Source: Stegostoma tigrinum (lineage: Eukaryota). Taken from it: 64,000 bases of DNA. Within the stretch, counting starts at the first letter, position 1, and each line of letters opens with the position of its first letter. Of the stretch, positions 6,753-62,330 are shown one piece after another. The stretch spans positions 7,489,310-7,553,309 of the forward strand of contig NC_081395.1 in the NCBI RefSeq assembly GCF_030684315.1, read 5' to 3'. The notes under the pieces are model-generated. The model had not been told where the DNA came from. It was given only the letters and a program-made list of their open reading frames with translations, and searched no databases. The translations under genes were made by a program, and so were the position numbers.

Positions 6753-6804
6753 TCATTGGGCATAGCGGGTGTCGGTAGTATTATCGTAGTCAAACTGATC
6801 ATAC
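6753..6804 (-). CDS. RBM14: RBM14/RBM4-family protein, coding exon 3 (R|YDQFDYDNTTDTRYAQ*)
   Basis: Acceptor CTTTTTCTCATAG; phase 2 matches the exon 2 donor; TGA at 6755-6753; an R|Y junction after YERTRLSP resembles the last RBM14 intron as recalled. Confidence 0.7.
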
Positions 6805-9686: not shown

Positions 9687-10176
9687 CTGCTGATGCTATC
9701 GTCTATGTATTTCTCGGTCTGATATTTTGGCACGGTGAGTGGTGACAGGCGGGTACGCTCATATAGGGTGCAGTTGTTGGCCCCTACTACGGCTGTGCCC
9801 AAGCGGTTGGGGCTTCTCTCTCTCACATACTCAAGTGGCGCATAACCCGCGGCAGCACCCGCGGTCTGATAATCTTCATAATAGTCGTAATAGGAACCGT
9901 GGCCATAATCGTAATCGTAGTATGAATAGTAAGAGGGGTAATATTGAGCCTGGTACTGGTACTGGCTATACTGGTTATAGCGCACCGAGTGGCAATCTCG
10001 GGCCTGGTGACCCTGCCTTCCACAGCGTTGGCACACATCCCGCTGCCCACCAGACTTTCCATAGGTCGACCGGGAGAGCTGAACCCTGAGCTTGTTCCCG
10101 TTGAATTCCTGATTATCCAGACTGGCAATCGCTTGCATTGCATCTTCCTCCTTCTCCATGTGTATAAAAGCATAGT
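9687..10176 (-). CDS. RBM14: RBM14/RBM4-family protein, coding exon 2 (end of RRM2, CCHC knuckle, Tyr-rich region)
   Basis: Acceptor TTTTCAG| gives (D)YAFIHMEKEEDAMQAIASLDNQEFNGNKLRVQLS; contains CQRCGRQGHQARDC and YERTRLSP; donor CAG|GTATGT at 9686. Confidence 0.9.
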
Positions 10177-11940: not shown

Positions 11941-12958
11941 TTTGTTACCTTCTGTAAAGGTCACCCCTCAGCCTCCAGCATTCTAGGCAAAATAGCCCAC
12001 AGCCTATTCAACCTCTCACTGTAGTCCAAACCCTCCAAACCCAGAAACATCATCAGGCTTTTCTGAAGCCTTTCAAGTTTCACAACATCGCTCCGTAGGA
12101 AGGAGACCGCAACTGAATGCTGTATTCCAAAAGGAGCCTAACCAATGTCCTGTAGAGCTGCAACATGATGTCTCAATTCCAATACTTGACAGATCTGACC
12201 AATAAAGGCAAGCGCACCAAATGCTTTGTAAAAAGGGGCCAGATATTGACACTTTTTTTAAAAAAAAATCATTTGTGGCACACAGGCATTGCTGGCTGGC
12301 CAGCCAGGGATTTATTTTTCATCCCTACTTGCCCTTTGAGAAGGTGGTGGTGAGCCACCTGCTGTTGACTGACCCATTAAGCCCTTAGGGGCAAAATTTC
12401 AGGACAATGGCCCAGTGATACTGAAGGAATAGACAATATATTTCCAAGTCAGGATGGTGAGTGGCTCGGAGGGGGATACTTGCAGGGGGTGGCGTCCTCA
12501 TGTAGAGAACATAGAACATTACAGCACAGTACAGGCCCTTCGGCCCTCGATGTTGCGCCCCTTGTCCTTCTAGATGTAAGCAGTGGCGGGTTTGGAAGGG
12601 GCCGCCTGAGAATCTTTGGTAAAATTCTTGTAGTGCATCTTGCATATGCACTCGCGGCTGTTACTGTGCTTGCTTCCACTCCATGAACGTCGCGACCTTC
12701 CAACATCATTTGTTTTCTGTACAGGATCCAGCCTCCACAGTAATGCGATCAGAGATAACGGGAACTGCAGATGCTGGAGAATCCAAGACAACAAAGTGTG
12801 GAGCTCCACACTTTGCCATCTACAGTAATGTGCTCCCCAAGGGTGAGCTGTGTTGATGGGCTGAACGGCCTGAGCGTCATGGCGGCCGACGCGGGGAACC
12901 CTCTGACCCCAGCGCCCCCGCCCGCCTCCAAACCCCGCTCCCGAAGCCGTGCGGTTAC

Positions 12959-13289
12959 CTTTGACGATGTCGCACTCCACCACCCGGCCGTACTCCTCGA
13001 ACTTGGCCCTCAGCTCCTGGTTGCTGCAGCCAGCCGCCAGGTTACCGACGTAGACCTTGGTGACGGCGGCAGGCCGGGGCCGGGACTCGGCCACGTTGAG
13101 CTTCTGGCCGTGCAGCTCGTACTGGTTGAGGGCGGCGATGGCCTGGTTCGCCTCCTCGGCGCTGTCCATGTGCACGAAGCCGTAATGCCGGATGATGTCG
13201 CACTCCCGCACCGTGCCGTAGTAGCCGAACAGCGTCTTCAGCTCGTCCACGGTCCCTTCGCTCGGGATATTCCCCACAAAGATCTTCAT
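12959..13289 (-). CDS. RBM14: RBM14/RBM4-family protein, coding exon 1 (RRM1 and first half of RRM2)
   Basis: ATG at 13289 gives MKIFVGNIP...YGFVHM...SRPRP..TKVYVGNL...ELRAKFEEYGRVVECDIVK; donor AAAG|GTAACC, phase 1. The three exons total 873 nt (290 aa plus stop). Confidence 0.92.
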
Positions 13290-14620
13290 TTTTTTTTTCA
13301 ATCTCCCCCCCTCCCCGCTCCACTTTTATTTTTAAACCCGCCTCGGTTCAAATCGATCTCTTTCCCCCACCCCCTAACACAGTCGCACAGAAATAAAATC
13401 TTTTCCCCGATCGAATGGCGGTGTCTCGAACAAAATGGCGCCCACTCCAACCGTTCGTCCGACTGGCTTCTCCCTCCTCGCGGGCCGCGCGCGCTCTCGT
13501 GTTGAGTGACGGCCGCGGCTATCCAATCTCAGCCGTCACCTTACACCGACATCCGGGATAGGCGTCCAATGAGGCTAGGTCTTCTACTCCCCGCCCACCA
13601 CCAGGGGCTGGACATCGTTTCGAGGGGGTGACACCTCCTGCTGTCCAATCGCTGCCGTCATCGTTCGCCTACATCCGGGATGGGTAGCGACTATTCTGGC
13701 AGCGTCACCCACCCACTACCGCCTTTGAGCCCGCCTACCTCTCAGAGCCTTCCGACCCATTCACGACTCACAGCGAAAGCCGCCCATTCGTTTTGATTGA
13801 CAGCCCTCTTTACCCAATGTATAGCCGCTAACGTGACCGCCAGCACCCACCCTTGCATGACAAAGCAGGGTGGCTATCCAATCAGAGTGCCAGATCTATG
13901 CCGCCTTGCGGTCATTGGCTGCCCACCCCCAATTCTAACCGACTGTCCATGCGTCCACCAATCATAGCAACGATGCCGCCTTCCGAACGCCCCTCTCGCC
14001 GCGCTGTGACTACGGACCGCCTTTTCCTCTTGAGTGACGGCCCCTTTACCCAATCACAGCCCTAGATTTTCAGAAGACGGGTGGAGGCTCGAAACGTCAG
14101 CCTTCCTGCTCCTCTGATGCCGCTGGGCCTGCTGTGTTCGTCCAGCTCCACACCGTGTTATCACAGCCCAAGATATCCGCGAATGGTCAGCGCTCGCTGC
14201 CGGGGCGCGGACCGATTGGTGCAACAGGTTGTCCCTCAAGTGATGAGGCGGGCTCTACACCTTTGCCATGTAGGTGAAGGTGGCCATTTTGAAGTCGCTT
14301 TTCTAGCGGGCTCCCGTGTTTGTCTGCGTCGGGCACGATCGTGTTATCCAAGCGGCATCATTTTGGGTGGGACAGGTGTAGAGGGCCCGTGATTCAGGCC
14401 GCGGTTCCGTTCCTCACCGTGAACGACGCTTGTCCCGGCGTCGTAGCTGACGGTGGCAGCCGAGGAGCCGCTAGGAATCGGTTTTTTTTGTTGAGTTCGG
14501 AGGTGAGAGGCCGCACGGCTCCCATCCCCCACCCCGCCATTTGGGCGGATAGGGGGCTTTCAGGATGACGTCACGGCAGCGGTGAGCCCCGCCGCCATTG
14601 CTCCTTTGGGCCAGGTCACT
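13290..14620. promoter_or_regulatory. CpG-island bidirectional promoter (RBM14-like gene / inverted paralog)
   Basis: CpG-rich; about 9 CCAAT/ATTGG boxes (e.g. 13523, 13566, 13645); oppositely oriented YY1-type GCCATTTTG at ~13431-13439 (-) and ~14283-14291 (+); TGACGTCA at 14566-14573. Confidence 0.75.
14068..14159 (+). mobile_element. Family A short element inserted in the promoter
   Basis: Contains gaaacgtcagccttcctgctcctctgatg...; flanked by the direct repeat atcacagccc(t/a)agat at ~14053 and ~14160. Confidence 0.65.
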
Positions 14621-14859
14621 CAGAGTAAGCCCAACATTTATCTCCCGTGTCCCTTACTTGCCCCTGCAGAAGGTGGTGGATGCCCACATTCTTTGTTTGA
14701 ATACATGGACTGACCCTAATGGCCCACCTGTGAACCATTTTGAGGTGGGTCTGAAGTCCCATGTTGGCCAGACCAGCTAAGTTTGGCCATTTTTCCCTTC
14801 CCGAGTGAACCAGATGGGTTTCATAAGTAGAGATTGTTGGAAAACACCCGATAGGCACC

Positions 14860-15695
14860 TTTTAAATTTTTCCCCTCTCACCTTAAACCTACGCTGTGGA
14901 AAAGACCTCATCCTATCCACATCCCTCATGATTTTATAAAGGACACCCCTCAACATCCAATGCTCCAGGGAAAATAGCCCCAGCCTATTTAGCCTTTCCC
15001 TGAGCTGATCTTACAAGCAACATCCTCGTAAATAGTTTCTGAACCCTTTCAAATTTCACAACATCCTTCCTATTGCAGGGAAATCAGAATTGCATACAGT
15101 ATTCCAAATGTTCCAACCAATGTCCTGTACAGTCACAACATGACCTCCCAACTCCTTTCCCCAATGCACTGATCAATAAAGGCAAGCATACCAAATGCCT
15201 TCTTCACGATCCAGTCTACCTGTGACTCCACTTTCAAAGAATTGTGAACCTGCACTCCAAGGTCTGACTATCCAGCAAAACCACCTTACCGTTAAGTGTA
15301 TAAGTCCTGCCCCAATTTGCCTGTCCAAAATGCAGCACCTCAGATTTATCTAAATTAAACTCCATTTGCCACTCCTGGGCCCATTGGCCTAACTGATCAA
15401 GATCCCTTTGTACTCTTAGGTAACCTTCTTTGCTGTTCACTGCACCTCAATTTCGGTGTCATCTGCAAACTTACTAACCATACCTCCTATGTTCACATCC
15501 AAATCACTTATATAAATGATGAAAAGCAGTAGACCCAGCACCAATCCTTCTGGCACACTGCTGATCACAGATCTCCAGTCTGAAAAGCAACCCTCCATCA
15601 CCATCCTCTGTCTTCTACCTTCGCACTGGTTGTGTATCCAAACGGCTAGTTCTTCCTGTATTCCATGTGATCTAACCTTGCTAACCAGTGTAACG
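14860..15695 (-). mobile_element. CR1-like LINE RT fragment
   Basis: Minus-strand peptides SSVPEGLVLGLLLFIIYISDLD...SKFADDT and QRDLDQLGQWAQEWQMEFN. Confidence 0.85.
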
Positions 15696-15913
15696 TGAGG
15701 ACAGTGTTTTTGCCATGAGATGTGATTGCACAGAATTTGATACGGCTTCAGTTGAGACCCACCCAGTGATTTACAGAGGTTCATTACGAGATTTTCATAA
15801 ACACAAACAGAGATCAAGGATCAAATCTTGGCTTGGTACCATACACCCGCTTCCCAGAAATTAATTAACCCATCTTTCTCTCAGGTTGCACCTGGACTGT
15901 AAAGGACGAAATA

Positions 15914-17062
15914 ATGAAAGCCATTAACAAGATGGATCTTGCAGATTTTAAAGGAAGAAAGGTTAGGGTTCAGCCATCCAAGGGAATTGCCAAAACACAA
16001 TCTGTCAGTGGTGCAGTGGAAAATTTTCGTCCCCTCGGAAGATCGAGCCACCAGGAAGCAGAATGCTCCAGGGCACCGTGTGAGTCCCCAGATAGGTACG
16101 GCCAGCAAAAGTCACTCTACACTTGTTCCCACCCAGACGGTGTTACCCAGCAATCTGTTGATGATTACGAGCACTTTGCACCCGGCCCTCACCTTGGGTC
16201 CCAAGCTGCCCGCCGTGCGCGCTGGGGCTATCGGCTCCAGTATTCTGTCCCTCCGAGCCTCTCCAAGAACAAATCCCTGTACCACCGCTTCCGCCTGCCT
16301 CCGCTCCCTGCACCAAAGCTGGAAAACAGAAAACCCACAAAGAGGAAAATACCTCGGGAGGATAAGCCTGCCTTCGTCAAAAGGTCCTGTCCCTCGCTTG
16401 TCAATATCACTACTCAAGGACAGAGCCTCCTGATGAAACAGTTAAACACTTCTGAGATGGGAGAGAGTTCCCAATCTAATCTGTTAAGTGCTCACATCCT
16501 GGCAGGGAGGCCCCAATCCGGTATGTTAAACACCTCCACTTTTGGAGAGAATACCCAATTTGGCCTGTTAAGTACCCACGACTTAGGAATGCAAGGCCAA
16601 TCCAGGTTAAACACCTCTGTCCTTAAAGAGAGTGCTCGAACTGGCCTGTTGGACACCCCCACTCTGGAAGAAAGTGCTCAATCTAACTTGTTAAAGACCC
16701 TCATCTTGGGAATGCATGCCCGATCCAATCAGTCAGACACCCCTATTGCAGATCAGGGTCAACGAGCCAGCCTTTTGAGTTCCCCGTCTGCAAGAAAGAG
16801 TGCTCAATCTGGCTTGTTAAGGGAGCCCTTACTGAGAAAGAGTGCTGAATTTGGCCTGCTAAATACTCCAAGCCTCAGAAAGAGTGCTAAATCTGGCTTG
16901 CTAAATACTCCCACCCTCGGAAAGAATGCTAAATCTGGCCTGCTAAATGCTCCTGCATCCAGCAGAACTGCGCAATCTGGCCTGTTAAACGCTCCCCACC
17001 ATTCTGAGAGAGATAGTCTGATTGGACCTGTTAAATACCCCTGCCCTGGGGAACAGTGCTGA
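15914..17062 (+). CDS. Diverged inverted paralog of RBM14-like exon 2 (half-RRM, degenerate knuckle, 14-aa tandem repeats), 382 aa; may be a pseudogene
   Basis: Acceptor ctttctctcag| at 15884; MKAINKMDLADFKGRKVRVQPS ~ MQAIASLDNQEFNGNKLRVQLS; GRSSHQEAEC ~ GRQGHQARDC; SLYHRFRLPPLPAPK ~ TLYERTRLSPLTVPK. Confidence 0.65.
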   Translation: MKAINKMDLADFKGRKVRVQPSKGIAKTQSVSGAVENFRPLGRSSHQEAECSRAPCESPDRYGQQKSLYTCSHPDGVTQQSVDDYEHFAPGPHLGSQAARRARWGYRLQYSVPPSLSKNKSLYHRFRLPPLPAPKLENRKPTKRKIPREDKPAFVKRSCPSLVNITTQGQSLLMKQLNTSEMGESSQSNLLSAHILAGRPQSGMLNTSTFGENTQFGLLSTHDLGMQGQSRLNTSVLKESARTGLLDTPTLEESAQSNLLKTLILGMHARSNQSDTPIADQGQRASLLSSPSARKSAQSGLLREPLLRKSAEFGLLNTPSLRKSAKSGLLNTPTLGKNAKSGLLNAPASSRTAQSGLLNAPHHSERDSLIGPVKYPCPGEQC

Positions 17063-17070
17063 ATCCAGCC
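16466..17070 (+). repeat. Coding 42-nt (14-aa) tandem repeat, ~13 in-frame units plus 1 out of frame
   Basis: Units such as SAQSGLLREPLLRK, SAEFGLLNTPSLRK, SAKSGLLNTPTLGK. Confidence 0.8.
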
Positions 17071-18401
17071 AGAGACATGTGTCTTCTTGTCTCTGCCCCT
17101 GCTCACCCATAAAATACACTTGCTCAGTTTTGCTCCACATCAATTTGTACCTCCCAAGTGAGATGCCAGTTTCTGCACCTCTAGGTGTCAAACTAATCCG
17201 AGCCAGCAGTCTTTTCAGAGATAAGTGCTGAGTTTCATCAGATCCTGAACTGTTAACCTTTATTGTAGACCGCAAAGAAACTGATTCTAGTTGGAGGCAT
17301 AGATACAGTTTCAGGCTAATTCCGCTCTCTCACCCACCACCCCAACCCTGTCTCACTGCAGCAAAATCTGGACCTTCTGTTGGCACCTCAGTTTCTTGCT
17401 CGTTTCTTGTCCCTATGCCCTGACATTTTTCATTGTCTAGGGCACTTCCCTCAAGGTCAGCGGAGCAAAGCATTGCCTTGCTGTCTTGGCATGTCTCATC
17501 AAAGGTCCTGTGACAATGAGTGTCCCTCTTCTGACTTGAAGGCAGTGGATGTGTAAAACTGCTCCCATCCACTCCTTGTCTGACATTCTTCAGTGAGTTA
17601 CCTTCCCGTGCATTGCTGAACTGCATTTTTAGCTCAATTTTAAATTTTGCATACCTTCTGGCTGGGGACATCTACTGTACCTTCTCCTACCAACAGCAAG
17701 GTGAGATTTGCTTAGTGCAGTTAGAACACCGAAACTGATGATATCCCAGTTAGTTAACTATGCGCAAATGCTTTGTGAAGTTAACTGGATGTCACGGAGT
17801 TTGCGTCTATAGAAGTTATCCTAATTAGCAGTGGCTATCAATTACCAGTAATGTGTCCCCTTTCTGAAAGCAGGAACAATACGCAAAATTTATACAAAAG
17901 CAAAGATGGATCAAATTAAATCAAACCCCATTCACCATATCAACTGTACTGCCTCTTGTACAATCATCCTGACCATTTCTTCTGGCTAGCTGGCTCTCTC
18001 TACAATTCTGATGAAAATTCAAGGGCCAGGATTGATACATTCAATTACACACCCCCTCCCCTCATCCCCAACGTGTTCCAGCAAAGTTGTATTTGTCCTC
18101 CGATATTTTGAGACATCCACGTCAAAACACTGTTTAAAATTGCTGCATGTGCTTGTGAAGTGTTGCTGTTTGTTACAGGCACACAACAGTTTTGAAGTGA
18201 GCTGTGGTCGGTAGTTACAACCAAAATTTGGTCAGCACATTTCAATCTGCAGTTCAACTCTGACTGACTTGTATCTGAATTTACTCAACAATGTTAGGCT
18301 TAAACTGATACATTCCCACTTTTATCAATAGAAGAATTAACTCCACATCACATGATATAATGCTCCTGATTTGATTTGTTTGAGCAATACCATTGAATAT
18401 T

Positions 18402-18642
18402 TAATAAAAACCAAAAGAAATGCAGACGCTGTAAATCAGGAACAAAAGCAAAGTTGCCGGAAAAGCTCAGCAGGTCTGGCAGCATCTGTGGAGGAGAAAA
18501 TATTTAACATTTCGGGTCCAGTGACCCTTCCTCAAAAACCAATTCTGAGGAAGGGTCACCGGACCCAAAACGTTAACTCTGTTTTCTCCTCCACAGATGT
18601 TGCCAGACCTGCTGAGCTTTTCCAGCAACTTTGCTTTTGTTG
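18402..18642. mobile_element. Palindromic family B element with 12-bp TSD and hammerhead-like cores
   Basis: Inverted arms; ccattgaatatt at 18390-18401 and 18643-18654; CTGAGGA-AGGGTC-ACCG-GACCC-(a)AAACG at ~18545. Confidence 0.7.
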
Positions 18643-18669: not shown

Positions 18670-21600
18670 CTGTTATGATCCAAACTGATGTTAATACTGG
18701 ACAAATGGTATCCCAAATAGACCCAAATCTTGTCTATTTAAATTTTTTTTTAGTTGTTAAAGTCAATTACTAAACACATTCACAAAAATACTCACGTATT
18801 TTTAACACACAGAATAAAAGAAGCAAAAGGATCATGAACTATATGACACTAAACAACATTTAACGCAGACATCAGAAAAATTTCAAAATCACACTACCCC
18901 TTTTATCAAAATAACATCTTTACATACCCAAACTCAGCAAAGAGCCTTCACATTCTTTATTCTAAAACTTCTTGCTCAGGCTGGCTCAGCTGCAACTGGT
19001 TTCCTGTTGGCAAATTTCTGTGCATTTATTGGATACTACTTTTCTTCAGACAATAATCCCAGAGAAACCCAAAATGAACTGCAAGCTAAACTTGCTATTA
19101 CTTTAACTTCAGGACAAACACAACTTCCGCAAAGTCAGTTCCCAGCAGTTTGTTTCCAAAATTTCTTACCATGGTGTTTAATATATTAACCTCCCCTCTC
19201 TAGCACAGCCACACGCTAACTTAGTGCTTTCTAGATTGTTCTTCTCTGAGCATGTGCCTGGACCCAGCAGGAAACAGCACAGTTTCTTCTACAATTTCAT
19301 AATGTACTGCATTGTTAACCCCTTCCTCCACTTTAAGGTTATAAATCTTCATTAAACACATGTAAGCTAATATATACAAAACAAATCAACAGAACAAAAC
19401 TAAAATCCATCTCCATCCCCTGTTTCCTAACACGCAAGATGTAAAATATATACTTAACTTAAAATTATGTATTGTTTTTGACACTTCCTGTCAAAACAAA
19501 AATGGAAAGCTATCTTTAAGAGGCATTTTCATTTTATATTTCAGTGTCATCATTCTATTACATTTCTACCAATTTTACTCCAGCAATAACAATGCATTTA
19601 CAACAAAAAATTAAAATCACATTCTGCGCAAGTCCACTTTGACTCCACCACAGGTTTTCCTCCGTATTTGCTCTTGATAAAGCATCTGATTGATATTGTC
19701 TCTTCCTGTGACATGAATGCTTTTAAAATTGTGTGGTTGAAGCATTAAACTCCATCAAAACAGTCTCTGATTCTTATTACGAAATTTTATTAGGAAAGTT
19801 GAAGGACTATGGTCTGTTGAAATAATAGTCTGCGAATTTGTACATGCACTTCAAAGTGTTATAGGGCCAACACTGAACTCAAAGTCACTTTTATTTTCCC
19901 CGCAAGTTGAGTATTTCTGACAGCAACAAATCAGCTTTTCTGAAAAGTAACCGACTGGCCATTCCGTCCCCATCTCAGCTTCCTGTAATAAAACTGCACT
20001 AACATTCACATCACTGGAAATAAGAGCTAGTTCAAATGGCTTAACGTAATTTGGTGGCAGTAGTAAGTACAAGTTTTCAAGTTGTCAGTGGCCTTTCTTG
20101 ATACACCACTATCCATTGAAATTTCTTACCCTTCCTTATTGAGCTTGTCAAGTGAATCATGCCCGGCACTGAAATTCAAATCAAACTTCTGATAGAATAC
20201 ATTCACTCCTATATACCGCAAATCTCTTGCTTTGTCTAAGGCACCGAAAATCCTAAGATCGTCCTTACTTTTGCTTCTCCGAGTGCTGCTTGGCTTGTCC
20301 AACAGCGTTCCCCATGCACTATTAGTGACTTCTGCTTTTGCAAGTTCGATTTTGAATTCAATTGGTCGAATTAGTCCCTTGTAACCGATCAAGAAAGTCA
20401 CACAATTGCCTCACTTGGCTCCACAGAGCCATATTAAAATTCCAGTTTGTGTAACATTGTTCGCAGCAGGTTTGGATTCTGTGCCCAGTGTTTCACATAC
20501 CTTGTTCCTTTAAGAATTCACAGATACTTTAATTTTGAGGCGACCTTGTTATGATCCCAGTTGACGTTAATCGTGGATGGTTCAGATCCCAGATTGAGAC
20601 CTGCCTGGGTAGACATCCTTATTTTATTTTAGAAAGCAGGGGGGTCAATTATACATTCTCAAAGATCCACTAATATGCTTTTAACACAAAAAACAATTAA
20701 ACAAGAATTAAAACATGGACTACATTACACTAGACTGTTTAAAAATCAGGGTTTAAGGTAGAGATTGGGCAAAAGAAAATCTCAAGAGTGTCATGAATCT
20801 TCCACACTTTCCCTGAAAAGGTGGTGGAAGTAGAGTCCTAAAATATTCTTAAGTCATGGGTATGTAGATCCCTCTTAAGCAAGGGGCAAAAGATTAGGGG
20901 TAGACAGGGATATGGATTTAAGGTCACAGTCAGATGAGTGACACCCTTATTGAGTGGCGATGGTCTACTCCTGGTCTTGATTAATTTGTATGTTAGTCAA
21001 GAGGTTTGGAAAGAATGTATTACAGACCGCAGAAAAGGATTCAAATTCATACTGCCTGTTATACTTGGGGCAGCCCAGTGGCTCAGTGGTTAGCACTGCT
21101 GCATCACAGTGCCAGGGACCTGGGTTCAATTCCACCCTCGGATGACTGTCTGTGTGGAGTTTGCATATTCTCCCTGTCTGCGTGGGTTTCCTCTGGGTGT
21201 TCTGGTTTCCTGCCACAGTCCAAAGGTGTGCAGGTTAGGGTGGATTGGCTGTGCAAAATTGTCTATAGTGTTCAGGGATGTGTGGGTTATCAGGGAATGG
21301 GTCTGGGTGAGATGCTCTGGGGGTCAGTGTGGACTTGTTGGGCCAACGGGCCTGTTTCCACAATGTATGGATTCTATGATGATATCTGTAGGTCTGGTTA
21401 GTTTAGTTGGCTAGATGAATTGAATACAGTGCAGAATCAAAGCATGGGGGTCAATTATACATTCTCAAAGATCCACTAATATGCTTTTAACACAAAAAAA
21501 ATTAAACAAGAATTAAAACATGGACTACATTACACAAGACTGTTTAAAAATCAGGGTTTAAGGTAGAGATTAGGCAAAAGAAAATCTCAAGAGTGTCATG

Positions 21601-23260
21601 AATCTTCCACACTTTCCCTGAAAAGGTGGTGGAAGTAGAGTCCTAAAATATTCTTAAGTCATGGGTATGTAGATCCCTAGGGTTCAAACCCTATACCAAC
21701 TTTGGCAATTCATGGCAGCATACCTCCTCCTCTTATCCATGCTTGTGGAATGGTTACATAAATCAATTTTGTCCCTCAAACGAAGAAAGATGCTTTGGTC
21801 CTTATGTGATTCCTCACTGGGGCAGCATGCTGGAAAATGAGCCTTGCTATTTCTGAAGTTATCTCAAAACTTAAAGCTTATGTCAACATACACTAAGTTG
21901 CCAATTTACCTTCCTTTGTAGACCCAGGTTAACAGGAAACACAGCCCGAGCTTCAGCACTTAACAAGAATTACGATTTCTCATAAATGAAAATGTTTGAA
22001 CCACCAGATAAACAACAACAAACTATCGACATAGACCTCTACCAGTTAAAACTCTAACCCTCTTGAAAAATTATCCCTGTACAAAATCATACGGACAAAC
22101 ACAGACAGGCAGAAAAAGTGTTAAAATCAGATTTACAAACTGGTAAGGAAGGTCAATGGTTCCCATCCACAGGATTTGCTGAGATCATTTTTTGTTCACA
22201 AGGACTTGCTGTTCTTCAATCTGTCTTCTCCAAGTATTTTTCCCACCTTTGCATGAGGCACAGAGCTACTGGTTCACAAATTATTAATTGGCTAAAAGCA
22301 GCGGGTTATAGCCACTGGTGGGGAGAGAAAACTGGCTTTCTTCAGCTCCAGGTATCTTTTAATCATTAAGAGACACACACCACTTTCCCTTCTGGAGGTC
22401 CAGAAGTTTCTGGCCATATTGTTTATACTCATAAGCTGTTTTGCCACCCAGGAACCAATCACATAGCTGTTAGCAGGCAAATAGCCATTGTCATCAGTTG
22501 GACACGAATCCATAAATCAATCTGCTGCTTCTGGCCAGTCGACTCTCATTTTGCACGCATGCCCTGATGCCAGCTCGTCTGCAACTGGTTGAACAAATCA
22601 ACAGTGTAAATACCAGTAACACGGAGTTTCAGTAAGTTGCTTTCAAAAAGTACAGCAATCCCTTCCACAATCCTTAGTTTTTGAGAGTGGTGCCCTTTTC
22701 TATTCCAATCCACAATCAAAAACAAAAGAGTATGGTATTTACAGATTGTGGAATATCCATACCCCCTTTATCCCAAGCCTCAGTAAAGAATCACCACTAT
22801 CCCTGTATTGAGGCTTCTTGGTTAGGCTGGCACAGCTGTAACCAGTTTCCTTTTGGCAAATTTCCCTACGTTGACCAGATGCTATTTTATTTCAGCTGGT
22901 ATCTCTCCCTGGGATACCTAAAGCAAACCACAAATTAAACGCTATCATTTTTACTTCAGAGCAAACACAAGTTCCCTAATCTCAGCAGTTTCTCAGCTAC
23001 ATCTCTTACCAGACTGTTTACCACATCAGCCTCCCCTCTGTAGCACACTCGCACACCAAATGACTGCTTTTTGGATTTGTGTGTGTTTGCATTCCACTCC
23101 CGTTACAGCTTTATTTCACTGCACAGTTAGCTCCCGCCTCCACTTTAACCGTAGTAAATCTCATTAAAATGTACAAAAGCATCCAATCTCCAGACTCCTC
23201 AGTACCAAGCGCAAAACAACTCTTATGAAATAAAACTAAAAACCATGCCTCACCCCACTT
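18670..23260 (-). mobile_element. Old Gypsy-like LTR retrotransposon remnant, interrupted by later insertions
   Basis: 19851-20072 (-) reads PFELA...SAVLLQE..GTEWPVGYFSEKL...QKYST (RNase H-like); similar LTR-like ends tgttatgatcc at 18671 and 20547; ~19050-19420 resembles ~22940-23255. Confidence 0.55.
21068..21380 (+). mobile_element. HE1/V-SINE-like tRNA-derived SINE
   Basis: A box tggctcagtgg, B box ggttcaattcc, V-domain tgtgtggagtttgcatattctccc, CR1-like tail. Confidence 0.85.
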
Positions 23261-28280: not shown

Positions 28281-29269
28281 TATAATTAATGGTTACATGT
28301 CATGTGTTAAAATCATGTACTGTATAACTTAATGTGTCTTGCTACTAAACTGAAAAATAAAGCAATGCTAAATATAAATTATATAAAAGCTGCTGTCTTC
28401 CAACATGGATTTCAGAATTCTAACCATATAACATGAACGTGAGTTTTGTCTCAAAGTGAAAAACATCTCAATTTCGTTGTCAGCAAATTATATTGCCAGC
28501 TACGAGAGATGAACAGGACAGAAATCCAGGATCACAAACTGACTCCTACTTGGGTACAAGTTCCACACACACACGCGGACTCTCACTGGGGTACAGCTCG
28601 CACAAACACACATACACACACACAGTCACTGGGGTACAGCTCGTGCTCACTGATTCTCACTGGGGTACAGACTCCCACACACACTGACTCTCACTGGAGT
28701 TTGAAACCTGATTCTGAACGGACACAGTTTGCCCTGATTTTGGTATGGCCGCAGATATTTTAAAAAAAGTCTATAGCAGACAGCATCAGAATGAAGAAAC
28801 AACCTTTTGCGAAAATTTCCTGAGCAGCAAATTGAGCCAACAGGAGAGTCAAGACCAATGCGAGTTTGTCAGTCCAAATTCGTAATGCACAAGGAGGCCA
28901 TGATTGGCATGGGGCTGTGCGCCCAATCAACGGGGTCAGCTCCAATAGTGACCAGATACGACATTCCTGCCTGTTCTCTCCACCTCCTTCCTCCACTTTA
29001 CCAATCCCCCCCTCTCATCCCTAACCCCACCTGCCCCACTCTAGGATTTGTGAAGTCATGAGGCCATTCCAAGTCCCCCTGACATCCCCACCACAAATGA
29101 AATCTGCTCTCCTTACTTAACGGAGCAGGGTCTCTCAGCTCACCGCCATTTCCACACAGGATGACAATAAAATGTTGACCTTGCTGGTGAACCGCATATC
29201 CCGGGAATGGATATTTTTATAAAAGGAAAGGCAGAACCGGGAAGCAGTGTCACCGAAAGTGCCTGCTGT

Positions 29270-29740
<471 letters not shown>

Positions 29741-34607: not shown

Positions 34608-36353
34608 TCAGCTACAAAGAGAGTTTGGATGGACTGTTATTGTTTTCCATGGAGCAGAGGAGACTGGTGGAGGATGACATGTGACTGAGATGTTTAAAAA
34701 TAAGAGGAGAATAGACAGGGTAGGCAGAGAGGAACGACCCCCTTTGATGGAGGGATCAAGGACCATCGATTTAAGCTAAAGGGCAGGAGGTTTTGAGGGG
34801 AATGTGAGGGAAAGTGTATTCACTCAAAGGATGGTGGCAATCTAAAACACAACTTGAGACAGGAACATGGAGGCAGCTCTAAGATTACAAAGAGATCTTG
34901 ATCAATTGGGTCATTGGGCTGAGGGGTGGCAGATGGGGTTTTAATTGAATAAATGAGAGGTATTGCAGTTTGGCAAAACAAACAAATTTAATGTTGGGGC
35001 CGTGGGTAGTGTTGTAGAACAGAGAGACCTAGGGGTTCAGGATACATAATTCTTAGAAATTTGCATCACCGGTAGGGAGAGTTCAGAAGACATTTAGCAA
35101 GCTTGCCTTCGTTGCTCAGACCTTTGAGTATAGGAGTTGGAACATCATCAGTTATTGGCTGGATATGTTGGGACTTCCTTCGCTGAAGCCAAAGAAGTTG
35201 AGGGGGTGAACTTAGAGGTCTATAAAATCATGGGGGGTGGGGGGGACAGATAAAGGTGAATAACAAAGGTCTTTTCTGTAGGGTTGAGAAGTTCAAAATT
35301 AGGGAGGATATTTTTAAGATGAGAAGAGAAAGTTTTAAAAAGGGGGCAACTTTTTTTTACATACAGAGTAGTTCATATGCGGAATGAACTTCTAGAGGAA
35401 GTGTAGGTACCGTCACAAATGTTCAAAAGATATTTGGAATAAGTATGCAAATAGGTTTGGAGGGATATGGACCAGGAGCAGGCAGGAGGGACTAGTTTAG
35501 TTTGAATATATGGTCAGCATGGAGTAGAATCATAGAGATTTAGAGAATGGAAAAAGACACTTCACCCAATTTGTCCATGTCGAACATGTTTCCTAAATTA
35601 ATCTAGTCCCATTTGTCAGCATTTGGCCCATATCCCTCTAGACCCTTCCAATGCATATATCCATCCAGATGCCTTTTACATGTTGTAATTTACCAGTCTC
35701 CACCACTTCCTCTGGCAGCTCATTCCATATACGCACCATCCTCTGCATGAAAAAGTTGCCTCTTAGCTCCTTTTTAGATCTTTCCCCTCTCACCTTAAAC
35801 TTATGACCCTCTAGTTTTGGACTATTCACCCCGTCCATGATCCTCATGATTTCATAAACTTCTACAAAATCAGCCCTCAGCCTCCGACGCTCCAGAGAAA
35901 AAAGCCCTGTGAAAAAAGCTCCACACTGCGCTATCCCAGCTACTCAGCCTCTCCCTGTATCCCCAACCCTGGCAACATCCTTGTAAATCTTTTCTGAGCC
36001 CTTTCAAGTCTCACAACATCCTCCCTGCAGCAGGGAGACCAGAATTGAAGGCAGGATTCCAAAAGTGGCCTTAACCAATGTCCTGGACAGCCGCAACATG
36101 ACCCTCCCAGCCCTCCTACTCTATGCACTGACCAATAAAGGACAAGACTGAGTTGGGATCCAAGGGTCTGTTTCCATACTGAATGATTCTGGACACCTTT
36201 GCAAGACCAAGGCATTCAGGGCTTGGGATCAAAGTGGTTGGTTTTGACCAGCACGGGGCTCGATGGGCCAAAGGGTCTGTCCCAGTACTCCACTACTTTT
36301 TGCTGATGGGTGGCACGGGAAGAGAAGGGAAGAGGAGTGCTGTCTTGGCTTAC

Positions 36354-36602
36354 CATCTCCTTCCGTAACAACGCCAGGGCCGCGTCTAGATTGGCCGGCT
36401 TGTTCCTTAGTAAGTTCTCGGTGGCCAGGCGGGGCCGGCTCAGCTCGTCCTGGATCATGGTCTTCTTGGCGTACAGCCTCTCCACGTCCCTCCACGACCC
36501 CCCGCTGGAATTGAGGATACCGCTCAGACCCTTGGGCAACGGTGGGAGCCCCTCGATGCCAGAGACTAGGCTCCCGGAGGGCTCGTCCTGCACCCCGTTC
36601 AT
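36354..36602 (-). CDS. FAM89B: FAM89 family protein (FAM89B/LRAP25-like), exon 1
   Basis: MNG...GLPPLPKGLSGILNSSGGSWRDVERLY...IQDEL...NLDAALALLRKEM; donor ATG|GTAAGC. The position just downstream of ZNRD2 favours FAM89B over FAM89A. Confidence 0.88.
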
Positions 36603-38539
36603 ACCCTCTGTTCCCTGCTCTGGTCTGCCTAGCTCATGCAGAGCACGGCTGTCTCAGTCAAAGTTTCCTCTCTCTCTCTCCCACTCCCTCCTCCAGGAAA
36701 CGCTACAACTAATGAAATTGTTAAAAAGTGCAACTTGGAACCAGTTTTGCAAACACTCTCTCTGTCTCTTTGCTTTAAAAAATAAGCTTTCCTTTCTAAT
36801 TTTAAAAGCTAAACCTCTCTCTTTCTCTTACAGGCGCGCACACTACAAATCCTCCTCCCTGGGATTTCCTGTTTAAAAAGATCCGGTTTCTGTGCAGATT
36901 CTATTCTTTGGCTTACCACCACGCCCTGAAAGCGTGAGGGCATTGCTGTTTCCTTTGCAAACTTGTTGATTTTGTTTCCGACGTTTCTCTCCGCCCCCCT
37001 CCAAAAAAATAAACAACGCCTCTCCAAATCCCAAACCAAAAATCTCAAACTATTTCCGCACTTGAGTTTTGTTTTCTCTCCCCCCCCCCCGCCGCGAGGA
37101 TTAAAAAAAGGTTGTTTTTAAATTCCACTGGTAACTGATCTCGTTTTTACCTGTGGAGATTTCTGCAGGATATTTACTGTCCTCTCACTGTGTCTTTTAA
37201 AGGTTGCTAATTTCTGAGAGTAATTACTGTCCTCTCACACGCCCTCTCTCTCTTTTCTGATTTTTCTGGAGAAGGGTCCAGACCCGAAAGGTCAGCCTTC
37301 CTGCTCCTCTGATGCTGCTTGGCCTGCTGTCTTCATCCAGCTCTACACCTTGTTATCTCTCCCTCTCTCTTTCACAGCGTTTATGTTTCTGAGGCAGTGC
37401 AAATGAAGACATCATGCACAGCAAGATCCCACAAAGCAGGGGATAAATAGTCATGGAGTCACATAGAGATGTGCACAGCTCAGAAACAGACCCTTCGGTC
37501 CAGCACGCCCATCCCGACCAGATATCCAAAATAAACCTAATCCCATTTGCCAGCATTTGGCCCATATCCCTCTAAATCCTTCCTTTTCTCTTAAATGCTG
37601 TAACTGTACCAGCCTCCACCACTTCCTCTGGCAGCTCATTCCATACACGCACCGCCCTCTGTGTGAGAAACGTACCCCTTAGGTCCTTTGTAAATCTTTC
37701 CCTTCTCACCCTAACCTATGCCCCTCTAACTTTGGACTCCCCTACCCTGGGGAAAAGACCTTGTCTATCCATGTCCCTCATGTTTTTATAAACCTCTATA
37801 AGGTCACCCCCCTCAGCCTCTGACACTCCAGGGACAACAGCACCAGTCTATTTGATTGGGAGAAATCAGACATTAACATTTCAGGTCCAGTGAACCTTTT
37901 CTCACAACTCAGAAAGGGTCACCAGACTTGAAATGTTAACTCTGATTTCTCTCCACAGATGTTGCTGGACCTGTTGAGCTTTTCCAGCAATTTCTGCTGT
38001 TTCTGATTCCCAGCATCCGCAGTTCTTTATGTTCATTGGAAATTAGAAGAATGGGGGGGTGATCTTATAGAAACATATGAAGTTTTGAAGGGATTAGATA
38101 AAATAGAAGCAGGGAGGTTGTTTCCACTAGCTGGTGAAACTAGATCCACAGGGCATAGCCTGAAAATAAGGGGGAGCAGATTTAGGACTGAGTTGAGGTG
38201 GAACTTCTTCACCTAAAGGGTTGTGAATCTGGAGAATTGCCTGCCCAGTAAAGCACTTGAAGCACTCATTGAATGTTTTAAGGCAAAAGAAGATGGGAGT
38301 TTTGATGAGTAAAGGAGCTAAGGGTTACAGTGAGCGGGTGGGTAAGTGGAGCTGAGTCCACAAAACAATCAGCCATGATTTTATTGAATGCAGAGCAGGC
38401 GCCAGATGGCCTGCTCCTGCTTCTAGCTCTTATGGTCTTGTGTAGCGAGGAGTGGAGTTGAAGGAACACAGCGGGCCAGGCAGCATCAGAAGAGCAGGGA
38501 AGCTGACGTTTCGGGTCGGGACCCTTCTTCAGAAACCCT

Positions 38540-43303: not shown

Positions 43304-43671
43304 CTATACCAGCCGCTTCAAGCTGTGCAGCGCGTCAGCACAGTTCCTGATCAGAAGGCAGAGCTGAGAGCTGTACTCCACAGAGGAGGCCCGCTCCAGC
43401 TCGCCGCAGGCCCACGCCAGCCTCTGCAGGACCGCCCGCTCGGCCTCCTGGCGGGCACTGGCACGAGGGGTGCCCAGGCAAGCCGGCCCTGGGGGCCTGT
43501 CACCTTCGGCCCGGGGAGGGGCTGGCTCGGGGGGCTCCAGACAAGGGGCGGGCAAAGACCTGGCTTCGAGTGAGAGTTCCGGAGTGGAGCGGGAGCAGAG
43601 TGCCTCCTCCTGGCCATTGAGGACACGTTGTCGCTCTCGAACTTGAGACAGGGCTGCCTGTGGGTTCAAAG
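43304..43671 (-). CDS. ZNRD2: ZNRD2/SSSCA1 exon 4
   Basis: Acceptor CTCGCAG|; ALNPQAALSQVRERQ...AVLQRLAWACGELERASSVEYSSQLCLLIRNCADALHSLKRLV*. Confidence 0.88.
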
Positions 43672-43917
43672 CTGCGAGATTAAAAAGGCAAAGATTAAAA
43701 TCAGAAGGTGGGAAGACGGCAGGAGTTTTGCAAACTTCACAGACGCACAAACGTGCCCTCATTTCTCACGGGCCACTAAAAGACACGCATGCATACCTAT
43801 TTTTTCTAAATCAACCTGTGCAAGGATGTTATTACACACCTTTGGAGCAGGTTGGACCTGAACCTGGGCCTCCAGGTAGGGGCACTACCACTGCACCACA
43901 AGAGGGCCCCTACTTTT

Positions 43918-48917: not shown

Positions 48918-49615
48918 CTGCACACAAACAGCCAACACCAACATTACAAGCCCATGCCATCTTCCTGCTCCAATGCGTCAGGAAGATGCAGCACCCCATC
49001 CTGACGCTTCGTGGAAGGAGTGTTTACCCTATCGCACTCACCCCTCATCTCTGTCTTCCACCTGCAATCTCCCTCCGTTGTCCTTCACCTCCCCAGTGGC
49101 TCCATTCTAATTCTCCCTCTCATGCCCATTCTCTTTCTCTCTTTTTCTCATTATTACCTGTCTCAAGCCCCCAACTTCCTTTTCTCCTCCCCGTCCCGTG
49201 CCCATTACACTCGGTTTCTCTTCTTCCCTATTAGTCTCTCCTTAGCCCATAACCATCTCTCTCTAGCCCACAAGTGTCTTTCCCACTCTCTCTCTCCCAC
49301 CCAGTCTCTCTCCCACCCCTTACACATTACTCTCCCACTTACCCAGATCCTCTCTCTTGCCTTCTTTTGCCCATTGCCTCTCTTTCTCTCTCTCCCCCCC
49401 TCCCCCAACCTGGCCCATGACATTCTCTCCCACATCCTTTCTCTCTCTATCCTCCCTTGCCTCAGTCTCTCTTTCACCAAACAAACTATAATTGAAGAAC
49501 TGCTAAAGCTGGAAATCTATTACAAAAACGGAAAATAACTGGAGAAGGGTCCCTGGCCCTAAAACACTAAGATGCTGCCTGACCTGCTGAGTTTCTCCAG
49601 AAATTTCTGTATTTG

Positions 49616-52600
49616 TCTCTCTCCTCTCTCTTTATTCGCATCCCCCTCTCCTCTCTCTTTATTCTCATCCCCCTCTCCTCTCTCTTTATTCTCATCCCTC
49701 TCTGCTCTCTCTTTATTCTCATCCCTCTCTCCTCTCTCTTTATTCTCATCCCTCTCTCCTCTCTCTTTATTCTCATCCCCGTCTCCTATCCCTCTCTCCT
49801 CTCTCTTTATTCTCATCCCCCTCTCCTATCCCTCCCTCCTCTCTCTTTATTCTCATCCCTCCCTCCTCTCTTTATTCTCATCCCTCTCTCCTCTCTCTTT
49901 ATTCTCATCCCTCTCTCCTCTCTCTTTATTCTCATCCCTCTCTCCTCTCTCTTTATTCTCATCCAAGTCTCCTATCCCTCTCTCCTCTCTCTTTATTCTC
50001 ATCCCCTTCTCCTATCCCTCTCTCCTCTCTCTTTATTCTCATCCCTCTCTCCAGTCCCTCTCTCCTCTCTCTTTATTCTCATCGCTCTCTCCTATCCCTC
50101 TCTCCTCTCTTTATTCTCATCCCTCTCTCCTCTTTATTCTCATCCCTCTCTCCTCTCTCTTTATTCTCATCCCCGTCTCCTATCCCTCTCTCCTCTCTTA
50201 TTCTCATCCCCCTCTCCTCTCTCTTTATTCTCATCCCTCTCTCCTATCCATCTCCCCTCTCACTTTATTCTCATACCTCTCTCCTATCCCTCTCCCCTCT
50301 CTCTTTATTCTCATCACTCTCTCCTATCCCTCTCTCCTCTCTCTTTATTCTCATCCCTCTCTACTATCCCTCTCTCCTCTCTCTTTATTCTCATCCCTCT
50401 CTCCTATCCCTCTCTCCTCTCTTTATTCTCATCCCTCTCTCCTATCCCTCCCTCCTCTCTCTTTATTCTCATCCCTCTCTCCTCTCTCTTTATTCTCATC
50501 CCTCTCTCTTTATTCTCATCCCTCTCTCATCTCTCTTTATTCTCATCCCTCTCTCCTATCCCTCTCTCCTCTCTTTATTCTCATCCCTCTCTCCTCTCTC
50601 TTTATTCTCATCCCTCTCTCCTCTCTCTTTATTCTCATCCCCGTCTCCTATCCCTCTCTCCTCTCTCTTTATTCTCATCCCTCTCTCCTCTCTCTTTATT
50701 CTCATCCCTCTCTCCTATCTCTCTCTCCTCTCTCTTTATTCTCATCCCTCTCTCCTATCCCTCTCTCCTCTCTCTTTATTCTCATACCTCTCTCCTCTCT
50801 CTATATTCTCATCCCTCTCTCCTCTCTCTTTATTCTCATCCCTCTCTCCTATCCCTCCCTCCTCTCTCTTTATTCTCATCCCTCTCTCCTATCCCTCCCT
50901 CCTCTCTCTTTATTCTCATCCCTCTCTCCTATCCCTCCCTCCTCTCTCTTTATTCTCATCCCTCTCCTCTCTCTTTATTCTCATCCCGCTCTCCTCTCTC
51001 TTTATTCTCATCCCCGTCTCCTATCCCTCTCTCCTCTCTCTTTATTCTCATCCCCCTCTCCTATCCCTCCCTCCTCTCTCTTTATTCTCATCCCTCTCTC
51101 CTATCCCTCCCTCCTCTCTCTTTATTCTCATCCCTCTCTCCTCTCTCTTTATTCTCATCCCGCTCTCCTCTCTCTTTATTCTCATCCCCGTCTCCTATCC
51201 CTCTCTCCTCTCTCTTTATTCTCATCCCCCTCTCCTATCCCTCTCTCCTCTCTCTTTATTCTCATCCCTCTCTCCTATCCCTCTCTCCTCTCTCTTTATT
51301 CTCATCCCTCTCTCCTATCCCTCTCTCCTCTCTCTTTATTCTCATCTCTCTCTCCTATCCCTCTCTCCTCTCTCTTTATTCTCATCCCTCTCCTCTCTTT
51401 ATTCTCATCCCTCTCTCCTATCCCTCTCTCCTCTCTCTTTATTCTCATCCCTCTCTCCTATCCCTCCCTCCTCTCTCTTTATTCTCATCCCTCTCTCCTA
51501 TCCCTCCCTCCTCTCTCTTTATTCTCATCCCTCTCTCCTCTCTCTTTATTCTCATCCCTCTCTCTTTATTCTCATCCCTCTCTCCTCTCTCTTTATTCTC
51601 ATCCCTCTCTCTTTATTCTCATCCCTCTCTCCTCTCTCTTTATTCTCATCCCTCTCTCCTCTCTCTTTATTCTCATCCCACTCTCCTCTCTCTTTATTCT
51701 CATCCCACTCTCCTCTCTCTTTATTCTCATCCCTCTCTCCTCTCTCTTTATTCTCATCCCCGTCTCCTATCCCTCTCTCCTCTCTCTTTATTCTCATCCC
51801 CGTCTCCTATCCCTCTCTTCTCTCTTTATTCTCATCCCCGTCTCCTATCCCTCTCTCCTCTCTCTTTATTCTCATCCCCTTCTCCTATCCCTCTCTCCTC
51901 TCTCTTTATTCTCATCCCTCTCTCCTATCCCTCTCTCCTCTCTCTTTATTCTCATCCCTCTCTCCTATCCCTCTCTCCTCTCTCTTTATTCTCATCCCTC
52001 TGTCCTATCCCTCTCTCCTCTCTTTATTCTCATCCCTCTCTCCTATCCCTCTCTCCTCTCTCCTTATTCTCATCACTCTCTCCTCTCTCCTTATTCTCAT
52101 CCCTCTCTCCTATCCCTCTCTCCTCTCTCCTTATTCTCATCCCTCTCTCCTATCCCTCTCTCCTCTCTCTTTATTCTCATCCCTCTCTCCTCTCTCTTTA
52201 TTCTCATCCCCCTCTCCCATCCCCCCTCCTCTCTCTTTATTCTCATCACCCTCTCCCATCCCCCTCTCCTCTCTCTTTATTCTCATCCCCCTCTCCTCTC
52301 TCTTTATTCTCATCCCCCTCTCCCATCCCCCTCTCCTCTCTCTTTATTCTCATCCCCCTCTCCTCTCTCTTTATTCTCATCCCCCTCTCCTCTCTCTTTA
52401 TTCTCATCCCCCTCTCCCATCCCCCTCTCCTCTCTCTTTACTCTCATCCCCCTCTCCTCTCTCTTTACTCTCATCCCCCTCTCCCATCCCCCTCTCCCAT
52501 CCCCCTCTCCTCTCTCTTTACTCTCATCCCCCTCTCCCATCCCCCTCTCCTCTCTCTTTACTCTCATCCCCCGCTCCCATCCCCCTCTCCTCTCTCTTTA

Positions 52601-61600: not shown

Positions 61601-61793
61601 CCCTCTCTCCTATCCCTCTCCTCTCTCTTTATTCTCATCCCTCTCTCCTATCCCTCTCTCCTCTCTGTTTATTCTCATCCCCCTCTCTCCTCTCTCTTTA
61701 TTCTCATCCCTCTCTCCTATTCCTATCCCTCTCCTCTCTCTTTATTCTCATCCCTCTCTTCTTTCTCTTTATTCTCATCCCTCTCTCCCTCCC
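49616..61793. repeat. ~12.2-kb polypyrimidine/polypurine minisatellite (27-nt and 40-nt units)
   Basis: 27-mer cctctctctttattctcatccccctct, with or without a 13-nt module (cctgtccccctct, cccatccccctct or cctatccctctct); 26 perfect 40-mers at 59961-61000. Confidence 0.97.
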
Positions 61794-61806
61794 CAGGGCC
61801 CATTAC

Positions 61807-61822
61807 CACTGTTTAAGGCCAT
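61807..61822 (-). CDS. ZNRD2: ZNRD2/SSSCA1 exon 1 (MALNS-G)
   Basis: ATG GCC TTA AAC AGT G|GTAATG matches the MALN start recalled for vertebrate SSSCA1; phase 1 joins exon 2; the four exons total 621 nt (206 aa plus stop). Confidence 0.8.
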
Positions 61823-62330
61823 GCTGCTACTTCAGGCACCCTCAGCGTTGTCGGAAGTGACGTCTTCTTGAGGCTTGGCTTCAACTTAACCGCTAAAATG
61901 GGAGAATAGACTAGTCGGACACCCCTCTCCTCCTGCGGGATGGTGAGAATGGGATCGTCCGGGCGGGAGGCGGAGTCTGTGCGATCAAGGGGCGGGACCA
62001 GAGTTCGTAAGGGGGCGGGGTTAGAGTCGGGGCAGGAGCGGAGTCCGGACTCCGGGCGCTGACCTTCGGCGAGGGGGAGGGGGCCAGAATCATTGGTGTT
62101 CGGGGCGGGGTCGGATCCGCGAGGGGGCGGGATCAGACTCGGGCGTTGTCAAGCTCGGGGCGGGGCTCCTTCGTTTAGGGGGCGTGGTTAGTGCGGTAGG
62201 GAGGCGGGGATAACGGCGAAGGGCGGGGTCACAACGGGTAATGGGGGCGGGTGTCTTCTTGGTGCCGTTACCAGGGAGATGCCGAGGCCTAGTTGATCGT
62301 TTGAGGCCTGCCGTCAGGCCGCTCAGATGC
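61823..62330. promoter_or_regulatory. CpG-island bidirectional promoter ZNRD2/SRR
   Basis: ETS/CRE-type CGGAAGTGACGT at 61852-61863; many GGGGCGGGG GC boxes at 61960-62255; possible non-coding SRR exon 1 donor ATG|GTGAGA at ~61943. Confidence 0.7.

Follow-up and report, generated by a model that had tools for sequence, protein, structure and literature searches.

A transcribed, spliced RBM4-family paralogue lying head-to-head with its parent gene in Stegostoma tigrinum and lacking RNA-binding modules

Introduction

The closest described relatives of the gene reported here are the RNA-binding proteins RBM4, RBM4B and Lark on the one hand and RBM14/CoAA on the other. Human RBM14 carries the motif YERTRLSP, and its product CoAM retains the RRMs but has no tail, which is the reverse of the situation described below. 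For RBM4, the accessible text of PMC3602429 names two RRMs, a CCHC zinc knuckle and an RD/ERSP motif as characteristic features, and it reports clustered duplicate copies in mammals and zebrafish.

Here we analyse a window of 64,000 nucleotides from contig NC_081395.1 of Stegostoma tigrinum, to which all positions refer unless stated otherwise. A preliminary description of this window had pointed to an open reading frame beside a gene that it called RBM14-like, and proposed that an inverted duplicate of a single exon was a candidate new gene. The candidate descends from the RBM4/RBM4B/Lark family. While its neighbour has two RRMs, a CCHC knuckle and RERSP, the candidate is devoid of RRMs, knuckle and RERSP; its first exon is non-coding, and its tail consists of repeats (Table 1).

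Table 1. Features of the candidate gene and its neighbour in the window
Feature	Positions	Strand	Remarks
Neighbour, last coding exon	6753..6804	-	YDQFDY...RYAQ
Neighbour, exon 2	9687..10176	-	Rest of RRM2, CCHC knuckle, Tyr-rich region, RERSP, ERTRLSP
Neighbour, coding exon 1	12959..13289	-	RRM1 and half of RRM2
CpG island between both genes	12800..14600	.	10 CCAAT boxes; likely shared bidirectional promoter
Candidate, non-coding first exon	14122..14269	+	Contig pieces and joint in 4/4 runs
Candidate, intron	14270..15884	+	GT..AG; phase 1 relative to the ORF, as in the neighbour's intron 1
Candidate, exon 2	15885..18488	+	Entire ORF and long 3' UTR
382-aa ORF	15914..17062	+	Net charge +23, predicted disordered
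RRM2 remnant	15914..15982	+	Last helix and strand; RNP1 motif just upstream destroyed
Zinc-knuckle remnant	16025..16066	+	First two Cys gone, His and last Cys kept
LYHRFRLPPLPAPK	16277..16318	+	Homologue of the neighbour's LYERTRLSPLTVPK, Ser lost
Bipartite-NLS-like KRK-x10-KR	16340..16384	+	In 4/4 carpet-shark proteins; prediction
Repeat tail	16421..17005	+	About 14 copies of a 42-bp/14-aa unit, 11 of them clear; region single-copy in the genome
Frameshift near the ORF end	16990..17161	+	Relatives' coding tail out of frame; 2 stops, 2 further shifts

The neighbouring gene

Exon 2 of the neighbour is identical at 163 of 163 residues to a Stegostoma tigrinum RefSeq protein that NCBI names RBM4B-like. 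The gene has two RRMs, a CCHC knuckle and the RD/ERSP motif; the knuckle scores 19.5 bits against a Pfam cut-off of 20.8, with all four ligands in place. Unlike RBM14/CoAA, it has this knuckle and scores higher on RRM2 of RBM4B, with 105 bits for the human RBM4B domain and 89 bits for that of RBM14 (PDB sequences). Its exon 1, however, comprises one and a half RRMs, which is also what RBM14 contributes to CoAZ in the accessible portion of PMC4267627. The PDB scores thus favour RBM4B and the exon-1 boundary is RBM14-like. We therefore class the neighbour as a member of the RBM4/RBM14 family with the RBM4 domain set, and keep the label 'RBM14-like' for the exon-1 boundary only.

The neighbour has several annotated C-terminal isoforms (9687-6753, minus strand). 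Three ray proteins are 339 aa long, and the two that were aligned appear to continue past the exon-2 donor. A second head-to-head pair of the RBM4/14 family lies on the same contig (contig positions 12666478-12681558; L004 and L005); each of its genes has a Pro-rich tail and a single open frame that contains both RRMs, and L004 scores slightly better with RRM2 of RBM14 (86 bits) than with that of RBM4B (82 bits). Four further loci (L006-L008, L010), at 8.86 Mb of the same contig and at C44:14.13 Mb, C44:15.95 Mb and C15:51.67 Mb, comprise three RBM4-like genes whose exons are laid out differently and a single broken copy related to L004.

Elsewhere in the window, two exons on the minus strand (29140-29740 and 36216-36653) have a FAM89/LURAP-type look (Pfam LURAP E 0.026, below the cut-off). 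The last exon of this gene shifts frame near 29400, which is either genuine or an error in the assembly. The end of an ORF at 43304-43765 (minus strand) resembles SSSCA1/ZNRD2, without Pfam support; together with FAM89B it would echo human 11q13, the home of RBM4 and RBM14. At 49560-61870, a pyrimidine-rich tandem repeat of about 12 kb, extremely skewed between the strands, gives rise to spurious long ORFs. Two nearly identical copies of about 260 bp in direct orientation (20620-20880 and 21440-21680), noted by eye, flank a SINE-like element.

The candidate gene and its transcript

The candidate ORF runs from the ATG at 15914 to the stop at 17062 on the plus strand and encodes 382 aa; counted from the acceptor, 392 codons are free of stops, in agreement with the earlier reading of a stop-free frame behind a strong acceptor. 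That acceptor (15884/15885) is in use: the joint 14269>15885 is present in 4/4 runs examined, which come from two studies, and the neighbour's intron is spliced in the same four. These are four of the six runs that contain the whole stretch; four small-share runs from another organism were left out of the evidence. None of the runs that contain the stretch is on record as RNA, and we take the four to be RNA because introns are skipped. The RNA contigs match the ORF without an indel, and genome searches yielded no second copy of it. The candidate is a real, transcribed and spliced gene, and it is probably coding.

The contigs of the first exon begin inside a multi-copy repeat (matches at ~14068-14165), so that its 5' end is unfixed; an AATAAA lies at 18403 in exon 2, where the contigs do not fix the 3' end, and true transcript start and end sites are not readable from them. 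The first exon has no in-frame ATG and no similarity to RRMs. It contains upstream ATGs at 14183 and 14243, and the ATG scan found a third, created at the splice junction, whose uORF overlaps the start codon of the ORF. The intron harbours a dispersed repeat at ~14850-15690.

According to the preliminary description, no RRM-coding exon 1 is visible upstream. This holds for 13450-15884, where searches with the neighbour's exon 1, a profile and the sevengill exon 1 (see below) found no RRM-coding exon, although an upstream exon as such exists and is non-coding. A weak match of ~14246-14383 to the sevengill RRM linker beat 60/60 shuffles in a region that had been chosen afterwards; it did not withstand a larger number of shuffles and a change of matrix (its score was reached by 43 to 339 of 400 shuffles) and was rejected as an exon-1 remnant. 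Likewise dismissed was a 10-mer common after donor-like sites, for which the DNA alignment gave no support (178/300 shuffles as high).

The 5'-most contig ends of neighbour and candidate, at 13452 and 14122, are 670 bp apart, and the two genes likely share a bidirectional promoter. Donor-like sites at 14502, 14581 and 14624 (plus strand) lie beside a GC box and an TGACGTCA element; this region (14500-14630) might serve as an alternative first exon, and the four runs examined show no depth there.

Homology to the neighbour and loss of its modules

Residues 1-160 of the ORF align to the neighbour's exon 2 with 43/160 identities (27%, BLASTP E 4e-6), and the local score of 112 compares with 61 for the best of 1000 shuffles. 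The pairwise alignment that had been proposed as a check upholds the three collinear blocks, and the two genes are inverted paralogues. In a genome search with the candidate, the sole other match was the neighbour. When other RBM4/14 loci were tried as the source, the neighbour reached z 12-18 and the runner-up (L017) z 2-9; the other loci were rejected, the neighbour having outscored the four other ORFs tested. A profile of the parent matches 4/4 carpet-shark proteins at E 9e-13 to 3e-7. At the DNA level, blastn found no similarity between candidate and parent exon, and the two have 10/18 fourfold sites in common. The intron is kept at the homologous phase-1 position and is spliced, unlike in a processed retrocopy. 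Descent from the RBM4 family is borne out by the parent profile, the grouping with an intact sevengill paralogue and the same intron phase.

The RNA-binding modules have been lost, as had been surmised. In the candidate and the relatives' proteins checked, no Pfam family was found, and hence no pair of RRMs. The first two Cys of the knuckle are replaced in 4/4 carpet-shark proteins, so that no CCHC knuckle exists, and the earlier reading of a remnant that keeps His and the last Cys proved accurate; the remnant belongs to one of the two blocks with the highest conservation, which matches C. plagiosum at 36/41 positions. The RD/ERSP phosphorylation motif is absent in 4/4 candidates and present in 6/6 parents checked, and the serines of both RERSP and RLSP are gone in 4/4 carpet-shark proteins. 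With 6-7 Tyr in the 79 aa of the homologous stretch, against 19-20 in 84 aa of the parent, the candidate also differs from RBM14/CoAA, in which two RRMs are followed by a Tyr-rich prion-like region. What has been kept and conserved is the counterpart of the YERTRLSP-like motif, in line with the preliminary description.

The basic NLS-like segment and the repeat tail recognized earlier were found again, the former as a prediction, and the net charge of the four carpet-shark proteins is +23 to +34. The repeat units have a consensus like [KE]SAQSGLLNTP. Across the 11 clear units, 21/22 Leu-Leu codons encode Leu with synonymous variation present, and 19/22 are conserved across species, a figure by which a neutral model is not clearly beaten (p 0.03-0.18). 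The within-gene dN/dS of the repeats, ~0.5, carries little weight because a shifted-frame control is similar (pN/pS 0.72 vs 0.62) and Leu-Leu had been used to anchor the units. An origin of the repeats from the read-through tail of rays was rejected (61 and 488 of 500 shuffles scored as high), and other genomic repeat matches were set aside as unrelated arrays after inspection of two loci.

Given an alignment of three sequences, AlphaFold2 returned a model of low confidence throughout (pLDDT 39), which fits disorder and may also reflect the shallow alignment. A PDB profile search with the candidate gave no matches, and the ESM Atlas gave sub-threshold leads only.

Carpet-shark orthologues and selection on the frame

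Open orthologues of 396-397 aa, free of stops, occur in three bamboo and epaulette sharks (Chiloscyllium plagiosum, C. punctatum and Hemiscyllium ocellatum), with identities of about 70%. Like the candidate, LOC122543839 (C. plagiosum; one protein under two accessions) and LOC132836336 (H. ocellatum) have the same start Met and architecture and are direct orthologues; unlike it, they retain the tail that is frameshifted in Stegostoma. Each orthologue lies on a contig sized identically to that of the parent, with near-adjacent accessions in both Chiloscyllium species. The gene had been called unrecognized, and rightly so inasmuch as NCBI lists the three orthologues as uncharacterised and gives no hint of RBM4 descent, but the protein is already in the NCBI and UniRef collections. 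A literature search, with most subscription papers outside its scope, found nothing on the gene, including under LOC122543839.

The candidate is identical to its C. punctatum orthologue at 253/353 positions (~72%), against 281/290 (97%) for the parent. This divergence is uneven: the parent-derived blocks (residues 1-67 and 113-160) are identical at 96/111 positions and the rest at 160/242 (Fisher p 6e-5, with block borders drawn after the alignment had been seen). In a neutral simulation, none of 1500 draws attained 96/111, whichever of the 8 settings was used, and at the given divergence the frame stays stop-free in ~0.006 of draws or fewer. All indels upstream of the tail are in frame in the orthologue alignment. 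The tail that the frameshift has freed accumulated 4 disablements in ~57 codons; in the ~360 codons upstream there are none, where ~25 would be expected (lower bound 7). Outside the blocks, 66% of positions are identical, a share that does not exceed that of the freed tail (~38/51, counted by eye). The frame looks selected because the parent-derived blocks are more conserved and the freed tail has decayed, and selection on the candidate protein appears very likely from these comparisons.

Two protein searches of 210-669 aa recovered the whale-shark parent and no whale-shark orthologue of the candidate. The accessible text of 10.1101/2022.10.17.512540 held no usable substitution rate.

A probable sevengill orthologue and the origin of the duplicate

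A profile search of 1.84 billion representatives returned ten matches, namely the query, a sevengill protein and eight unrelated repeat proteins, which were dropped. The sevengill protein, XP_067831709.1 of Heptranchias perlo, is annotated as 'RNA-binding protein 4.1-like isoform X2'. It carries two RRMs, and its CCHC knuckle is intact. Its accession adjoins that of the parent in the same species and its contig is sized alike, so that synteny is read here from accession order and equal contig size. The candidate is identical to it at 33/64 positions (score 151) and to the parents at 17-19/52 (scores 69-74); 21 residues are common to candidate and sevengill protein and occur in none of the four aligned parents, against 7 the other way. 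In the tree, the two group at 94/94, just below the tool's star threshold. When the sevengill gene was left out, a carpet-shark origin survived the AU test (p 0.54), a result that is uninformative.

Like the candidate, the sevengill gene has these derived residues, the same neighbour and RARW in place of RERSP; unlike the candidate, it retains the RRMs and the CCHC knuckle, and its 218-aa isoform stops before the ERTRLSP homologue, the NLS and the repeats. We infer that the two genes are very probably orthologous. Heptranchias is a squalomorph and Stegostoma a galeomorph, two groups that diverged some 200 million years ago or earlier. Since the likely sevengill orthologue keeps both RRMs and the knuckle, the duplicate would have been whole and older than this split, and the RRM exon and the knuckle would have been lost later. 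Two earlier statements thereby lose support, namely that the candidate was built from exon 2 only and that it may be a new gene.

Discussion

The reading that we favour, as a moderately probable one, is that of a spliced RBM4-family paralogue, derived from an old whole-gene inverted duplicate and stripped in carpet sharks to a predicted basic, disordered nuclear adaptor that would not bind RNA. A whole-gene inverted duplication of an RBM4-type gene would have preceded the galeomorph/squalomorph split, and the RRM exon and the knuckle would have been lost in the carpet-shark lineage. The alternative of a recent partial duplication, in which exon 2 alone was captured by the parent's promoter, is now very improbable and largely refuted: the candidate resembles the intact sevengill gene much more than it does any parent, and the absence of blastn similarity to the parent exon and the low number of shared fourfold sites do not fit with it either. 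In its favour are the lack of a detectable exon-1 remnant, the AU test without the sevengill gene, and the start Met, whose counterpart in the alignment is a Met present in just four of 15 parent sequences, those of the carpet sharks.

We also regard it as unlikely that the locus is a slowly decaying transcribed pseudogene or a divergent lncRNA, whose RNA would be a by-product or tuner of the parent's CpG-island promoter and whose ORF would be a relic. The upstream ATGs, the near-neutral change across two thirds of the ORF, the tail frameshift already fixed in Stegostoma, the whale-shark protein not found in searches of 210-669 aa and the 670 bp between the 5' contig ends would all suit such a locus, but a frame that is open in 4/4 species where it was found (in protein databases, which hold open frames only), conserved parent-derived blocks, indels that are all in frame before the tail, a repeat unit that is a multiple of three and the small neutral odds of survival would not. 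The preliminary description had named stops or frameshifts in orthologous loci, with dN/dS near 1 and no expression, as the mark of a pseudogene; the frame is open in four species and the blocks are conserved. Quite unlikely, too, is a dominant-negative competitor that is expressed from the shared promoter, binds no RNA and titrates the partners of the parent's C-terminal region (import receptor, SR kinase and condensate proteins). The head-to-head layout, the splicing of both genes in the same four runs and the conserved ERTRLSP homologue accord with this idea. Such a role, however, needs surfaces common with the parent, and these are largely gone: the candidate is only 27% identical to it, and the loss of the Tyr-rich region and of both Ser-Pro motifs in 4/4 proteins weakens the reading. 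The residues removed in the zebrafish Rbm14b 18S mutant are reportedly tyrosines. They were needed for the entry of Rbm14b into granules (PMC6796953, accessible text).

Returning to the stripped nuclear adaptor, a tentative mechanism would be that the bipartite NLS imports the protein, that the two conserved parent-derived blocks bind nuclear partners and that the Leu-Leu repeats add weak multivalent contacts. Lacking the Ser-Pro phospho-sites, the conserved blocks would make it an adaptor outside SR-kinase control, and the three upstream ATGs would hold protein output low. In the accessible text of PMC3602429, the N-terminal domains of RBM4 decide the splicing outcome, and the C-terminal domain serves import, localization and partner binding; likewise, the disordered region of zebrafish Rbm14b alone gave no functional rescue in the accessible text of PMC6796953. 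By these precedents, the stripped gene could not perform the parent's job. It is conceivable, if doubtful, that we are looking at an unnamed shark sister gene of RBM4 in stepwise change from an RNA-binding protein to a repeat scaffold, with the cysteine-less knuckle as a new protein-binding surface.

While no new mechanism is revealed yet, several 'uncharacterised' shark proteins can now be assigned an ancestry. New genes are known to arise when duplicates lose domains, but living series of this process are uncommon. Here, an intact and a fully stripped gene stand beside a near-frozen parent, a setting in which one may test when RNA binding ends and what selection keeps.
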